From Alphaproteobacteria bacterium (GTDB lineage: Bacteria > Pseudomonadota > Alphaproteobacteria > UBA2136 > UBA6156), in NCBI GenBank assembly GCA_036261915.1, contig DATAJX010000006.1, positions 23,546 to 87,545 of the forward strand: a stretch of 64,000 nt of DNA, in the 5' to 3' direction. Made by a program: the position numbers and the translations under genes. This document shows positions 27,878 through 34,745 of this stretch, piece after piece. Numbering within the stretch: position 1 is the first letter of the stretch; the number at the start of each line of letters is the position of its first letter. The notes beneath the pieces are model-generated. The model worked only from the letters and a program-made list of their open reading frames with translations. It was not told the origin of the DNA and searched no databases.

Positions 27878-28468
27878 ATGACCCAGCGCGGCGCCCTGTT
27901 CGGCCTCGATGCCCGCATCGCGCTGGCCATTTTCGCCGTTCTGGCGGTGGTGGTGGGCTATCTGGCCTTCGGGCGCATCCAGGTGGCCCGGCAGGCCGCC
28001 CTGCTGGCCCAACTGCAGGATATCGAAAACGCCCTCGCCGCCTATCAAACCGACATGGGCACCTTCTTCCTGTTCACGCTGAATAAAGAGCCGGGCGACA
28101 ACGACAGCACGCTCGATATTACCGCCCTGTGGGATAAAAACATGGTCAAACCAGGCTTCCGGCGGCACTGGAACGGCCCCTACCTGCACCGCACCAGCCG
28201 CGAAATGCCCGGCTACGGCCGTTTAAGCGTGTTTTACGCCACCGGCGACCGCAAAGACTACTGCTCCACCACGTCCGACTGCTTTGTGTGGCTGTCGGTA
28301 TCCAGCACGCCGCAAAAGGCCTGGGTGCAAACCAACCATATCGTCGACGAAGGCAACGGCGCTGAAAACGAGATCGACGGCCAGCAGATCAGCCTCGGGC
28401 GCATCCAGTCCGAAGCCGCCACCGACCCCCGCCCGCTGTATTACCGCACGGTCGAACGCCCCCGCTAA
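27878..28468 (+). CDS. Pseudopilin-like protein A (GspG/EpsG-like body, atypical N-terminus)
   Basis: Conserved N-terminus QRGALFGLDARIALAIFAVLAVVVG, then AL..Y..D.G.F and W.GPYLH motifs reminiscent of T2SS major pseudopilins. Paralog of 34152..34745. Begins 7 bp after bamE. Confidence 0.55.
   Translation: MTQRGALFGLDARIALAIFAVLAVVVGYLAFGRIQVARQAALLAQLQDIENALAAYQTDMGTFFLFTLNKEPGDNDSTLDITALWDKNMVKPGFRRHWNGPYLHRTSREMPGYGRLSVFYATGDRKDYCSTTSDCFVWLSVSSTPQKAWVQTNHIVDEGNGAENEIDGQQISLGRIQSEAATDPRPLYYRTVERPR
27896..27944 (+). repeat. Direct repeat copy 1 (encodes LFGLDARIALAIFAV)
   Basis: ctgttcggcctcgatgcccgcatcgcgctggccattttcgccgtt, about 85-90% identical at the nucleotide level to 34185-34233. 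Confidence 0.7.
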
Positions 28469-28478
28469 GCCGCCATTT

Positions 28479-28506
28479 AAAAAGCCCCCGGCCGGGGGCT
28501 TTTTTA
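28479..28506. terminator. Bidirectional rho-independent terminator
   Basis: aaaagcccccggccgggggcttttttact, lying between two convergent genes. Confidence 0.75.
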
Positions 28507-31500
28507 CTGCGCGGCACGGCTGTACTTGGCGGGCTGGGCCGCAAAGGCGGCATATACATACGTGGCGCCACTGCCGTTATAGTCGCTGTTGGTGTTGCGT
28601 ATCTTGAACCCGTTTGAAACCACATCCAGGTCGGTGGCCGCATTACTGTTACTGGCCGATGTCAGGTTATAAAACACCTCGTTGCCGTCCGGGTTATACA
28701 GGTTGCGCGCGGTATCCAGCACAAACCAGTTGCCGGTGCTGTCGGTGCGCTTGATGATCACAAGCGCGGGTTTGAAACCCAGGTTCACATAAGCGCCGTC
28801 GGCACTACCGTTCCCGGTATAGGTTCCAAATTTGCTGAATCCCGGCACCTCGGCAAAGGCATAAACAACATAAGGCTGGCTGGCCAACACGCCGCCCCCG
28901 GCGGTCAGGCCCACATTGCTCGAGGTATGGCCCGAACCCCACATGGTCGAATACGTGGTCGCCGCCGCGGTGGTGTTCAGCGCCAGGTAGGCCGTGGTGT
29001 TGTTCGCCAGGTTCTGGTGCCACACATACCAGTGCGAAGCCGAACCGCTATACGTCCGGGCGATCACAAACGCCGGTACAACCCCCATGCCGTGCGCCGC
29101 GGTAAAAGCCCCCGATCCTGGCGCCGTACCGGTCAATATGTCCATGCCGGGCGTAACGCCCTTCTTAAACATGTGCGCCACATAAATGTTGCCGCTGGTG
29201 TTAAAGGCGCTGGCGCTGCCTACCGCAAAACCGTTGTTGTAAAAGGTTGCCAGCGATTGCGCATCGATGGTCTGCACCGCCGTGCCCGTGCTGTCCAGGT
29301 ACTTGGCGGGCCCGCGCGCACTGTCAAACCAGCCCCATGCGCCGGTGCTGGTATTATCCTTCAGCATCACCAGGTCGGGCTGGTAAGGGGTGTAGGTGGT
29401 CAGCGGCGTGTAGGTGATAACAATAAGCCCAGGGGCGCCCACACCCGCCGTGCTGCTGTTCGAACTACCGCCGCCGCCGCCGCCGTACAGGCCACCATTA
29501 CCCGCCGAATAACCGCTGCTGCCGCCCTGTTGCGAGCCGCCGCCGCCGCCCGAACCGTGCAGCGGGTCAAACTCCTGCCCGTTGCCACCGTTACCGCCCC
29601 TGCTGGCGCCGGCAGGATTGCCGCCGCCGCCGCCGCCGCCGCCCGATGACCCGAACAGCGAATAACCGTACCCGCCATGGGTATTGTTCACCGCCACGAT
29701 CCCACCGGTGCCGTTGACCAGCCCGCTGGCATTGGCCCCGCGCCCGCCAACGCCGCTGGTGGTGTTATTAGAGGGTCCCAATTGACCGGCTTCACCGCCG
29801 CCGCCGCCGCCGCCGCCCGGGCCGCGGTAGTTCACACCCGCGTTCGAGCCACCGGCCCCGCCATTGCCATAAGGTCCGGCCGCACCGCCGCCGCCGCCGC
29901 CCGCCTGGGTGCCGGTGGCGGGGCTCTGCCCGTTGCCACCGGCGCCGCCCGAATACTTGGTGGTACCGGTACCCGAGCCCGAAGCCCCGCCAGCCCCACC
30001 CGTGCCACCGCTGCCGCCGCTGCCGCCCTTGGCCCCCACGCTCGAAGCCGCCACGCTGGTGCCGTTGAACCACGTATCGCCGCCGGCGGTGCTGGCCGCA
30101 CCACCGCTCCCCACCTGGGTCTGCACGGTGGTGGTGGGCACCAGCGCCAGGTTCGATATCTTCGAGTACCCGCCGCCGCCGCCGCCGCCGTTGACCGAAG
30201 ACCCCGACGACGCCCCACCGCCGCCACCGATCACTTCAATGGTGTTGCTGGTGCTGTTCCAATCCAGCGGCACGCGCCACGAAGTCCCCCCGGTCAAAAA
30301 TATCTGCTTGGTCGTCGGCACGGTGGGCACATAGGTGATCACCACGATCCCCGGCGCCCCATTCCCCGGGTTTCCCTGGTTGGTGCTGGTATAACCGGCA
30401 CCGCCGCCGCCGCCGCCATACAGGCCGCCGTCACCACCACGGTAAATACTGCTTTCGCCGCCGCCGCCGCCGCCGCCCGCACCTGCACCACCCCACTCAA
30501 TGCCGTCGCCCCCCTTGCTCCCCAAACCGTGGGCACTGCTCACGCCGCCGCCGCCGCCTGCGCCAAAGGCCCCGGCGGTCGAATCCACACTGGCCGTCGC
30601 CGCACCGCCGCCGCCGCCGCCAAAGCGGTTAGCACCACCGGCACCGCCGGTGGTGCTCGTACCGTTACCTCCAACCGAACCGCCATTAGCTCCACCGCCA
30701 CCACCCGAACCTGCACTACCGGCCGAACTCATATCGCCACCATTGGCGCCATTACCGTTGGGCCCGGCGGCGCCACCGCCACCGGGGCCGCTCACATAGC
30801 CCGAGCCACCACCCGAATTCCCGCCGCTATACGCATAAGGCGCACCGGGGTTGGTGGTGCCGCCACCCGCACCGCCGCGCGCGCTCGAAGCCGCCCCGCC
30901 GGTCCCGCCGCTGCCGCTGGTGCCGCCGGTGCCGCCCTTGGCACCCACGCTCGCCACCGCCAGCGAAGCCCCGTTGAACCACGTATCGCCACCGGCACTC
31001 CCCGCCCCGCTGGTGGCCGGGGTGGCGGCCACACCGCCCATGCCCACATTGTAGCTGATGCTTGCCCCAATGGTCAGCGTCACACTGGTGGCCTTGGCAT
31101 AGCCGCCGCCGCCGCCGCTCCCGGCATAGGTGGTGCCGCCACCGGCCCCAAAACCGCCGCCGCCGCCAGCCCCGATCACTTCAATGGTGTTATCGCCGCT
31201 CCAGTCACTGGGCACGGTCCAGGTGGTGCCGCTGGTCAAAAACACCGTCTTGGTGGGCAACGGCCCAGGCAAGGTAACAACCTGGGTACCGCCCGTGCCG
31301 CGGTACAGCACCGGCTGGAAGTAAAGCGAAGGGCTCACCACCGCAGGTGTCGCCGTGTTGTAGGTGTTCAGCGCCGCAAACCCCGCCGGGGGGGTGGCAG
31401 CAAAAGCTCTCTGACCAAAGTTGAACGAGGCCGTTTGGGTGGAACCTTGGTTATTGCCTATGGCCGCCACCCAAGCCAGCCCCGCCGTAGCAGTGGCCGC

Positions 31501-32928
31501 CGGGCTGGTGCCGGTGGCAGGGTTCGAACTCCCCAGCCACGTCCCGTTCTTCGAGAAATAAAGCTTACCCGTGTCGGCGTCAAAGGCCACGCCAACCACA
31601 TCGTTAATGGCAATCGTCACACCATAGCTGGTAATGGCCGAACCGTTATTATACACTTGCCCCGCACTGTTTATCCCATAGCCATAAGTATTATTGTAGC
31701 CGGGGTAATAGCTCGCGGGCATGTTCTGCTGCTGGATACCCGCCGTCCCCACCAAACTGCCGGTCCATACAAACTCCCAGTACCATTTGCCACTCGTCAT
31801 CAACTGGTTGGCCTTCACAACGCTGTTGGTGGCAAACGGCACCGAAACGTCCATATTCGCCGCCGACAAGGTCGAGCCGGTCGGGTCCAGAAAATTGAAT
31901 GCAGGGTCATTCCCGCGCCCATTGTCGCCGTTGTCGGCCAACGTGGGGTGGTCTTCGGTAGGGTCATAGGTCACGCCGGTGGTCACGCTAAAGTTATTGG
32001 GCGTCCAGTTGTTGCCCTTACCGCTCACGTCCTTGCCCAGCGTGGTGGCGGTGTTGTTCAGGTAATTTTCAAAATCAAGATGGAATCCGTTGGTGCCATA
32101 AGCGCCGGTATAGGTTTTCGGCACCCACATGCCGTTGCTGTCAATCTCGGCAAAAGCGCTGGGGTCCAGGGCCAGGCCGTCCACAAAATTGATGTCGGCC
32201 ATCACGCCGTCAAAATACTGGGTGGAAGAACCCGCCGTGTTCAGGTAAGCGCCGATCCCGTTATAGCCGGACCGGTTGAAGTACGAAGTGGTGCTGTTCG
32301 CCACCGAGCCCGAACCGATCACCTGGCGCTGGCCGTTAACGTATATCCGCACGTTATCGGCGGTGGTGCCGTTGGCGGTGTCCCATACAAACACAATGTG
32401 GTACCAGGCCGTGGGGTCGCGGTACACGCCCGCGCTGGTGGCGGCATTGGCTGAGTTGGCATAAAAGATCAGCTGGTCGCTCGTATTGAAATCAACCTCG
32501 GTCGTCTGCCCCGACCCCACGATCTGGCTGAACAGGGTCTGCGTGGTTCCCATCTTCCCGCGCTTGACCCACATGCTCATGGTCCAGGTGGTCAGGTTCC
32601 CGTTGCCGGCGGGTGAGCGGCTCAGGTACGCCGAACTCGCGCTCCTGAACCGCAACGCCCCGCCGCTGCACTTGCCGTTGGTAACACCCGGAATGGTACT
32701 CGAAAGGAACGAACCCGCCGAGTTCTTCCACTCATAGCTATACTTCGTGGGCACCATCAGGCTCTTGCCGCTGGCATGGTTATTGGCGATCAGGCGGCAA
32801 CTGCCGAACTCATTGATGCCAAGCCCCTCGCCGTTCGGAATGGTGTAACTCACGTTGGTCTGCGCCATGGCATTGCCGCCCAGCAGCAACCCCAGCAGCA
32901 TCAGCAAAAACAACATCGCCCGGCGCAT
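28504..32928 (-). CDS. Giant secreted multidomain fibre-like protein (LamG-like + SPRY-like + 2x glycine-rich domain + duplicated C-terminal domain)
   Basis: 1474 aa with a signal peptide (AMA|QTN).
- aa ~100-240: LamG/ConA-like pattern (W.H..FVWD...VRIYVNG).
- aa ~380-500: SPRY-like pattern (KWYWEFVW...GDVVGVAFDADTGKLYFSKNG).
- aa 562-866 and 876-1173: two copies of a W.VP...IEVIG-GGGGG...APG(I/L)(V/I)VITY glycine-rich domain.
- C-terminal domain carrying a twice-repeated KP.LV.IK...STG.W..D.AR motif. Confidence 0.8.
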   Translation of the reverse strand: MRRAMLFLLMLLGLLLGGNAMAQTNVSYTIPNGEGLGINEFGSCRLIANNHASGKSLMVPTKYSYEWKNSAGSFLSSTIPGVTNGKCSGGALRFRSASSAYLSRSPAGNGNLTTWTMSMWVKRGKMGTTQTLFSQIVGSGQTTEVDFNTSDQLIFYANSANAATSAGVYRDPTAWYHIVFVWDTANGTTADNVRIYVNGQRQVIGSGSVANSTTSYFNRSGYNGIGAYLNTAGSSTQYFDGVMADINFVDGLALDPSAFAEIDSNGMWVPKTYTGAYGTNGFHLDFENYLNNTATTLGKDVSGKGNNWTPNNFSVTTGVTYDPTEDHPTLADNGDNGRGNDPAFNFLDPTGSTLSAANMDVSVPFATNSVVKANQLMTSGKWYWEFVWTGSLVGTAGIQQQNMPASYYPGYNNTYGYGINSAGQVYNNGSAITSYGVTIAINDVVGVAFDADTGKLYFSKNGTWLGSSNPATGTSPAATATAGLAWVAAIGNNQGSTQTASFNFGQRAFAATPPAGFAALNTYNTATPAVVSPSLYFQPVLYRGTGGTQVVTLPGPLPTKTVFLTSGTTWTVPSDWSGDNTIEVIGAGGGGGFGAGGGTTYAGSGGGGGYAKATSVTLTIGASISYNVGMGGVAATPATSGAGSAGGDTWFNGASLAVASVGAKGGTGGTSGSGGTGGAASSARGGAGGGTTNPGAPYAYSGGNSGGGSGYVSGPGGGGAAGPNGNGANGGDMSSAGSAGSGGGGGANGGSVGGNGTSTTGGAGGANRFGGGGGGAATASVDSTAGAFGAGGGGGVSSAHGLGSKGGDGIEWGGAGAGGGGGGGESSIYRGGDGGLYGGGGGGAGYTSTNQGNPGNGAPGIVVITYVPTVPTTKQIFLTGGTSWRVPLDWNSTSNTIEVIGGGGGASSGSSVNGGGGGGGYSKISNLALVPTTTVQTQVGSGGAASTAGGDTWFNGTSVAASSVGAKGGSGGSGGTGGAGGASGSGTGTTKYSGGAGGNGQSPATGTQAGGGGGGAAGPYGNGGAGGSNAGVNYRGPGGGGGGGGEAGQLGPSNNTTSGVGGRGANASGLVNGTGGIVAVNNTHGGYGYSLFGSSGGGGGGGGNPAGASRGGNGGNGQEFDPLHGSGGGGGSQQGGSSGYSAGNGGLYGGGGGGSSNSSTAGVGAPGLIVITYTPLTTYTPYQPDLVMLKDNTSTGAWGWFDSARGPAKYLDSTGTAVQTIDAQSLATFYNNGFAVGSASAFNTSGNIYVAHMFKKGVTPGMDILTGTAPGSGAFTAAHGMGVVPAFVIARTYSGSASHWYVWHQNLANNTTAYLALNTTAAATTYSTMWGSGHTSSNVGLTAGGGVLASQPYVVYAFAEVPGFSKFGTYTGNGSADGAYVNLGFKPALVIIKRTDSTGNWFVLDTARNLYNPDGNEVFYNLTSASNSNAATDLDVVSNGFKIRNTNSDYNGSGATYVYAAFAAQPAKYSRAAQ

Positions 32929-32932
32929 GGGC

Positions 32933-33952
32933 TCAGCGCCCTGCTTGCTTGGCCCGCAGTTCGTCCACTTCGCGGCGCAGGTCGTCGATTTGTTTTTGTT
33001 GGATCTTCACAGCCTCGATCAACGGCGCGATCAGCTGGTCGCTGTCCACCACCATGGTGGTGCTGCCGCCGCCGTGCACAGCCTCGGGCATCACCTTCTG
33101 TACATCCTGTGCGATCACCCCGTACGAGGGTCGGCCGTCCTTCTTCCAGGTAAAGTGCACGCCGTTCAGGCTTTTCACCAATCCCATGGCGTCGGCCACC
33201 GGCACAATATTGTCTTTCAATCGGCGGTCCGAACTGTGCAAATAGGCAACCGCCGTCATATTGCCGCTGGCGCTCACGTCACCGGCCACCTCAAGCTTGC
33301 TGGCCGGCGAGGTTACACCCAAACCCACATTCCCGGCGCTCGTAATCCCCAGGCGCGCACCCTGCCACGCACCGGCAATATAATTGCCCACCATATACAT
33401 CCCGCTGCTGTCATAACCGGTGGCCCACAACGGCGTGGTGTTGCTGGTAAAACGTATGTAGTTCCAGCTACCGGTGCCCGACCGCGACAATGTCATGGTA
33501 TTATCAAGGCCCGACAGCACATAAAGCGGCACCGTCGTGGTGGCGGCAGCCCCAATCCCCACATTACCGCTCGAATAAAACCCGGTGGCCGAAACCACAC
33601 CAGTGGCACTCACCCCCGGTCCCACAAAGCCCAACGTAGGGTGAATGTAAGCAGCCCCCGCCGTACCCGCCAATGTAAAGCTCACAGTGCCCCTGTCGGC
33701 CACCACCATGCCCAGGTTGGCGCCGCTGGAAACGTTGGTGGTGCTGATGCGGTCACCCGCGCCCCCACCGTTGGTGAACACAATGCCGTTCACCGCCAGG
33801 TTGGTGGTCGATACGTACAAAAAGTGCCCATACGTCCCGCTCACCACCCCGGCCACGCTGGTACTTACCAGCGGCGCATTGTTCATCTGCGCCATCACGC
33901 CGCCCGGCAGCAGTAGGGCGCAAACAAGCAAAAGCAGGCGTAATGTTTTCAT
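32933..33952 (-). CDS. Secreted phage-tail-fibre-like protein with a C-terminal S74 intramolecular chaperone autoprocessing domain
   Basis: Signal peptide (VMA|QMNN). Tail-fibre repeats (GNVGIG...TT, GNVGLGVTSPASKLEVAGDV). The C-terminus YLHSSDRRLKDNIVPV...GLVKSLNGVHFTWK...LIAPLIEAVKIQQKQIDDLRREVDELR matches the Ser-Lys dyad chaperone-of-endosialidase domain. Lies 4 nt downstream-adjacent to the giant gene. Confidence 0.8.
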   Translation of the reverse strand: MKTLRLLLLVCALLLPGGVMAQMNNAPLVSTSVAGVVSGTYGHFLYVSTTNLAVNGIVFTNGGGAGDRISTTNVSSGANLGMVVADRGTVSFTLAGTAGAAYIHPTLGFVGPGVSATGVVSATGFYSSGNVGIGAAATTTVPLYVLSGLDNTMTLSRSGTGSWNYIRFTSNTTPLWATGYDSSGMYMVGNYIAGAWQGARLGITSAGNVGLGVTSPASKLEVAGDVSASGNMTAVAYLHSSDRRLKDNIVPVADAMGLVKSLNGVHFTWKKDGRPSYGVIAQDVQKVMPEAVHGGGSTTMVVDSDQLIAPLIEAVKIQQKQIDDLRREVDELRAKQAGR

Positions 33953-34151
33953 CTTCTTGAACCCACATTAACGGCTCATCTTTTCCGCGCAACGCCCGAG
34001 TAAGCAAAACGCCGACATTTCCGCCCAAAAAATGAGCCAAACCTCATTAAAAAAACAACACTTTACAACAGTAAAACAACAGCCACGCATCACCTCCGCA
34101 TCATTTGCGCACGCCCCTTGCGCCCCCGCCCCTGCCTGCTAGCATGTTGGC

Positions 34152-34745
34152 ATGAAGCATATTTTACAGTCACAACAAGGCGCCATGTTCGGGCTCGACG
34201 CCCGTATCGCGCTGGCGATTTTCGCCGTGATTTCCGTGGTGGCGGGCACCGCCATCGCCATCAGCATGGATAGCACCCGCGCCAAGGCCCTGGCGCAGGA
34301 AATGTCCGACACCGGCAAGGCCATCGAATCCATCAGCTACGACATGCGCGCCGATCTTTACCCGTCCCTCATCCAACCCTCGCCCAAAAACGCCTACACG
34401 GCGCTGTTCGACGTCAGCGTCATCAAAGACGAAAACAACTTGCGCGGCAAATGGTTAGGCCCCTACGTTCATGCAACAAGTACAAGCTCCCGCTACGGCG
34501 AAATGATGATCGAGGCCCGCAAGGCCTCCCATGCCGACGCCTGCATGGAAGGCGAGCCCTGCTTCCTCTGGCTCACCTACGCCAACGTCAAACGGGCGAT
34601 TGCGCTCGAGGTCAACAGCATCATCGACGGCGACAAAGAAACCGACCCGGCCAAAACCGGCCGCATCCAGTGGGTCGAGAACGCCGACGGCACAACGCTC
34701 AGCCTGCAGGCCGCCAAAACGCTCACTTATACCGGGAACAACTAG
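34152..34745 (+). CDS. Pseudopilin-like protein B (paralog of 27878..28468)
   Basis: QQGAMFGLDARIALAIFAVISVVAG N-terminus. Contains AIESISYDMRADLYP and KWLGPYVHATS, and shares the C.FLWL motif with A. Its stop codon overlaps the nusB stop. Confidence 0.55.
   Translation: MKHILQSQQGAMFGLDARIALAIFAVISVVAGTAIAISMDSTRAKALAQEMSDTGKAIESISYDMRADLYPSLIQPSPKNAYTALFDVSVIKDENNLRGKWLGPYVHATSTSSRYGEMMIEARKASHADACMEGEPCFLWLTYANVKRAIALEVNSIIDGDKETDPAKTGRIQWVENADGTTLSLQAAKTLTYTGNN
34185..34233 (+). repeat. Direct repeat copy 2 (encodes MFGLDARIALAIFAV)
   Basis: atgttcgggctcgacgcccgtatcgcgctggcgattttcgccgtg. Confidence 0.7.

Follow-up and report, generated by a model that had tools for sequence, protein, structure and literature searches.

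The S16 / T2-type long-tail-fibre tip of phages consists of a trimeric gp37, which carries a C-terminal intramolecular chaperone, and a monomeric gp38 cap (PDB 6F45; PMC6851490). The S74 subgroup of the mosaic adhesive trimer (MAT) fibres of Bdellovibrio bacteriovorus comprises cell-encoded, phage-tail-fibre-like trimers (PMC10769870). A MAT is one chain of about 1,000 residues with a conserved, beta-rich N-terminal anchor domain of ~130 residues; it binds its ligand through its own tip, and a separately encoded capping adhesin has not been described for these fibres (PMC10769870). In cyanophage Pam3, the tail fibre gp24 (7YPX/7YFW) is a trimer; a bundle of helices at the N-terminus docks it, and gp25 is required as a separate chaperone (PMC9608196). 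Here, we describe a two-gene cassette in an uncultured alphaproteobacterium that is best read as a domesticated, mobile fibre-plus-capping-adhesin pair, a likely analogue of S16 gp37-gp38 and putative kin to the Bdellovibrio MAT fibres. The window, meaning the whole 64,000-nt stretch that was analysed, covers positions 23,546-87,545 of the forward strand of contig DATAJX010000006.1 (GCA_036261915.1), and the features of the cassette are listed in Table 1.

Table 1 Features of the fibre-adhesin cassette and their positions in the window
Feature	Position	Strand	Basis
Inserted cassette, 5,683 nt, between two resident pilin-like genes	28469..34151	.	synteny with L087, L088
Bidirectional hairpin terminator (AAAAAGCCCCCGG/CCGGGGGCTTTTT)	28474..28509	.	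inverted repeat I5
Giant adhesin gene, 1474 aa	28504..32928	-	ORF and domain searches
Sec-type signal peptide, aa 1-22	32863..32928	-	by inspection; predicted cleavage after NAMA
'Next' adaptor domain, aa 23-88	32665..32862	-	common only to P0003, P0011, P0019, P0177
LamG / concanavalin-A-like jelly roll, aa 89-345	31894..32664	-	Pfam Laminin_G_3 8.8e-14; phrog_27411
SPRY domain, aa 346-540	31309..31893	-	Pfam SPRY 1.9e-8
DUF7483 first strand (…VLYRGTGGTQVV), aa 541-555	31264..31308	-	colinear alignment
Gly-rich module 1 (TNF-like sandwich and polyglycine lattice), aa 556-866	30331..31263	-	
Gly-rich module 2, aa 870-1173	29410..30321	-	55% identical to module 1; phmmer domain match
DUF7483 repeat 1, aa 1180-1261	29146..29391	-	hhalign R1-R2 97%, R1-R3 98%
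DUF7483 repeat 2, degenerate middle copy, aa 1262-1362	28843..29145	-	hhalign R1-R2 97%, R2-R3 90%
DUF7483 repeat 3, aa 1363-1468	28525..28842	-	hhalign; AF2 model
Gene for the partner fibre (339 aa) with signal peptide, short fibre and S74 chaperone	32933..33952	-	Pfam, PHROGs, PDB
S74 chaperone/protease domain of the fibre, aa 225-339, SDRRLK motif	32936..33280	-	Pfam Peptidase_S74 5.6e-17
Intergenic region 5' of the fibre gene, presumed promoter region	33953..34151	.	position only

Domain architecture of the giant adhesin

A sequence-only reading of this DNA had described one giant secreted protein with LamG, SPRY, a pair of Gly-rich domains and an internally duplicated C-terminal domain. 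It is partly supported: the domains are real, but a recent duplication and a two-repeat C-terminus are not. The open reading frame lies on the minus strand as described and has a host-like codon bias (GC3 = 0.76), and its product is deposited at NCBI as HEX2859644.1 'SPRY domain-containing protein'. Pfam searches of separate segments recovered the same layout and assigned the C-terminal domain to DUF7483. The protein consists of a signal peptide, a ~65-aa domain named Next, LamG, SPRY, two Gly-rich modules of ~300 aa and DUF7483, in this order. The Laminin_G_3 (PF13385) match at aa 108-250 passes its gathering threshold (52.3 against 27.6 bits), as does the SPRY (PF00622) match at aa 381-466 (31.3 to 34.9 against 26.3 bits), and the SPRY domain also matches those of DDX1 and RyR in the PDB by sequence. 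An NCBIfam scan gave no matches for the giant protein or its partner fibre, and a literature search on the function of phage SPRY/LamG proteins retrieved nothing relevant. By inspection, the protein begins with a textbook Sec signal peptide (MRR / AMLFLLMLLGLLLGG / NAMA-Q). P0011 and P0019, two cellular relatives, start in a similar way, and the N-terminus of P0003 is hydrophobic and was not flagged by a crude signal-peptide test. The phage versions have no signal peptide.

The start and end motifs that had been quoted for the two Gly-rich copies are present in both, and the modules align globally (aa 556-866 against aa 870-1173) with 55% identity and a z of 24.8 against shuffles. Nucleotide similarity was likewise found where it had been claimed (30893-30996 against 29984-30087, 79.8% over 104 nt). 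The pair is not a recent internal duplication. The Gly_rich_2 profile (PF21722) recognises module 1 with 25.9 bits against a gathering threshold of 24.3, which it passes only if scanned as a separate segment, and module 2 reaches 13 bits, below the same threshold. Module 2 is counted in the family because of its identity and z score to module 1 and because of the family alignment. The family profile matches the Pam3 gp24 structures (7YFW/7YPX) with an E-value of 5e-9, and the fold of the modules is that of the solved Pam3 gp24-type TNF-like plus glycine-rich receptor-binding domain. This Pam3/ALK-type polyglycine domain is very widespread, with more than 1,800 cluster representatives. It often occurs in tandem, and the N-termini of the proteins that host it often resemble signal peptides or membrane anchors.

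The DUF7483 (PF24299) match at aa 1180-1466 is strong (E 2e-71, 235.7 to 241 bits against a threshold of 27), and it spans profile positions 23-330, that is, it begins only at position 23. The first strand of the domain lies upstream of the Gly-rich modules: once aa 557-1173 are excised, the giant protein is colinear with P0019, P0090 and P0100. The Gly-rich pair is thus nested in a DUF7483 loop, an arrangement that the sequence-only reading had missed. The C-terminal motif pair that it had pointed out (aa 1182-1206 and 1385-1409) is real, and a local alignment of aa 1182-1254 with aa 1385-1462 gives a z of about 5, but hhalign resolves three repeats rather than two. The AF2 model, on which the third repeat also draws, is all-beta (pLDDT 82, pTM 0.85). 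A literature search for DUF7483 returned no paper. Whichever model of the cassette holds, the analysis provides an anatomy for this domain: it has three repeats, and one of its loops can accommodate nested domains.

The partner fibre and its linkage to Next

The upstream neighbour of the giant gene, separated from it by 4 nt, encodes a fibre with its own signal peptide (MKTLRLLLLVCALLLPGGVMA/Q). It matches tail-fibre PHROGs, down to 3e-34, and its sequence matches in the PDB include MyRF ICA, Bdellovibrio Bd2133 and S16 gp37. The SDRRLK motif of its S74 domain occupies aa 241-246, with the Ser241 codon at 33230-33232, and the domain is 72%, 61% and 48% identical to its counterparts in loci L003, L005 and L007, respectively.

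The linkage of this fibre to the Next domain is strict. A Next gene directly follows an S74 fibre gene in all five loci (5/5), whatever the 'warhead', which ranges from a single polyglycine module up to a 1,400-aa multi-lectin array. The 4-nt gap of the window corresponds to 3 nt or to overlapping stop and start codons in the four other loci, where the arrangement is conserved at 35-50% identity, and the adjacency is kept while shaft and warhead vary. The same gene pair is also found on a plasmid-like island and on other chromosomes, with particle genes absent. Next occurs only in the cellular versions, and the sole two cysteines of the giant protein (C44 and C87) both lie in it and are invariant. 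A search of Next against PHROG gave no match, and metagenome and viral contigs scanned for the Next pattern yielded matches to the pattern with no confirmed relatives among them.

Insertion into a core locus

The cassette is an insertion into a core locus. Two syntenic relatives, L087 and L088, carry the orthologues of pilin-like genes A and B side by side with an overlap (BamE > A > B < NusB), and these empty sites differ from the window only by the two-gene insert. The idea that the pilin-like genes are part of the system found no support, these genes being absent near the cassette in L003-L008 and present without it in L087 and L088. A 69-nt, 84% direct repeat (27890-27958 / 34179-34247) was rejected as an att site because it is a conserved N-terminal coding segment of resident paralogues that are adjacent in the relatives. 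No tRNA was found at the locus. None of the prophage, GTA or tailocin genes searched for (capsid, portal, terminase, tail tube/sheath, integrase) occurs in the 64 kb, and all scanned neighbours of the cassette are housekeeping genes; there is no prophage at the locus.

The hairpin at the downstream end has 18-nt arms that are 89% complementary, with no spacer, and overlaps the stop codon of the giant gene. This zero-loop hairpin was missed by a terminator scan. At the other end, the intergenic region is divergent from pilin-like gene B, and a sigma-70 consensus scan of the cassette found nothing in it.

Proposed function and alternative explanations

On balance, we lean towards a phage-derived, horizontally acquired two-gene module that is exported by the bacterium itself, outside any virus particle. 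The cell probably makes the pair as a fibre-plus-adhesin for attachment to other cells or sugars. Gene 1 (339 aa) would give rise to a short trimeric fibre, with folding assisted by the C-terminal S74 chaperone. The chaperone may then be shed by self-cleavage at Ser241, so that the matured tip would end in …AYLHS. Gene 2 (1474 aa), presumably translationally coupled to gene 1, would produce a monomeric beads-on-a-string adhesin. Both products are predicted to pass the inner membrane and to be displayed on the surface, where a disulfide-bonded Next may dock the giant adhesin onto the matured fibre in a trimer/monomer stoichiometry, as S16 gp38 caps the gp37 trimer. LamG, SPRY, the two Pam3-type modules and the triple-repeat DUF7483 could then offer several binding surfaces, and their ligands would be carbohydrate or protein on other cells or particles.

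The giant protein could instead be an independent secreted multi-lectin, used for polysaccharide or particle capture or in a matrix, that is co-transcribed with the fibre and unattached to it. LamG, SPRY and the TNF-like/Gly-rich modules are generic binding folds, and there are many signal-peptide proteins with a Gly-rich module that have neither DUF7483 nor a fibre context. However, the tight adjacency in all five loci despite varying shafts and warheads, together with a fibre-tip motif that is specific to Next-linked fibres, can hardly be explained by co-regulation alone, and we consider this explanation unlikely. That the two genes encode accessory tail fibres for a phage-like particle (GTA, tailocin or prophage) specified elsewhere in the genome is quite improbable, although the host belongs to the Alphaproteobacteria, in phages this is a virion/tail-fibre family, and the Methylophilales phage MEP301 has genes for an S74 fibre as well as for a DUF7483 protein. 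In the Rhodobacter GTA, the fibre and head-spike genes are unlinked. The Sec signal peptides on both proteins, which set them apart from the phage versions, are incompatible with cytoplasmic particle assembly, and particle genes are absent from the 64 kb and from the plasmid-like island and other chromosomes that carry the same pair. The GTA accessory-fibre reading was rejected for these two reasons, signal peptides and missing particle genes.

A decaying prophage tail-fibre remnant with no present function would account for the phage ancestry, for the isolation of two fibre-type genes and for a GC3 of 0.74-0.76, which is near the bottom of the range in the window. Nevertheless, both open reading frames are intact, with 4.4 kb free of stops in a gene rich in Gly codons, the genes have gained an adaptor domain specific to cells as well as signal peptides, and a clean terminator flanks them. 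Furthermore, four other loci keep the arrangement at 35-50% identity, which implies purifying selection, and a remnant is very improbable. We give hardly any credence to an anti-phage decoy, in which an exported copy of a receptor-binding protein masks the cell's own receptors against phages with the same module: the modules are of a phage receptor-binding type and the cassette is mobile, but there is no defence-island context, and masking needs no paired fibre, adaptor domain or multi-module architecture.

Comparison with known systems

The family is of phage origin. Phage LamG-SPRY-DUF7483 proteins (phrog_19943; MEP301 gp16, pelagiphage, cyanophage) contain the same domains in the same order, with 33-39% identity to the window protein in DUF7483. 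Unlike it, they have no signal peptide, no Next and mostly no Gly-rich modules, and no S74 gene directly precedes theirs. The TNF-like plus glycine-rich region of Pam3 gp24 and ALK/LTK has the fold of the window modules. In contrast to Pam3, two such modules stand one after the other within a loop that belongs to another domain, in a protein that is probably monomeric.

The window fibre resembles the MAT fibres in its signal peptide, its S74 terminus with SDxxxK and its modular, swappable tips. Its shaft may also resemble theirs in sequence, given matches to the MAT structures Bd2133 (8OND; E 4.7e-4 over aa 112-300) and 8OL4 (E 5.8e-3), in a comparison in which the PDB covers only the MAT tip and beta-helix regions. 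However, it is only 339 aa long, and its host is an uncultured alphaproteobacterium.

The likeness to S16 gp37-gp38 extends to the gene order, where the adhesin gene comes directly after the fibre gene, to a fibre with a C-terminal self-cleaving S74-type chaperone (SDxxxK) that matches gp37 by sequence, and to an adhesin in which a small N-terminal domain is followed by a glycine-rich, polyglycine-type binding domain. In contrast to S16, both window proteins carry signal peptides and there is no virion, with no phage genes in 64 kb. The window adhesin is about six times larger and adds LamG, SPRY and DUF7483, and its Gly-rich modules belong to the Pam3/ALK TNF-like type, whereas gp38 is of the beta-helix type. 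The whole giant protein has no sequence match to gp38 in the PDB, and Next has no detectable similarity to the three-helix attachment domain of gp38. Because a gp38-type attachment domain is missing, the pair works at most like the S16 pair and is not a member of its family.

More tentatively, the cassette may belong to a so far unrecognised class of mobile 'fibre + plug-in adhesin' cassettes encoded by cells, in which Next caps swappable phage-derived warheads onto S74-matured trimers. Should the proposed fibre-plus-adhesin model hold, free-living bacteria beyond Bdellovibrio would domesticate phage receptor-binding hardware as a portable two-gene adhesion kit, with a small adaptor domain setting which adhesin goes with which fibre. 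This would aid both the reading of unannotated bacterial 'tail fiber domain' genes and the engineering of fibre-adhesin pairs. Such a class would be a bacterial counterpart of T-even gp37-gp38, outside the virion and outside the known predatory setting of Bdellovibrio.

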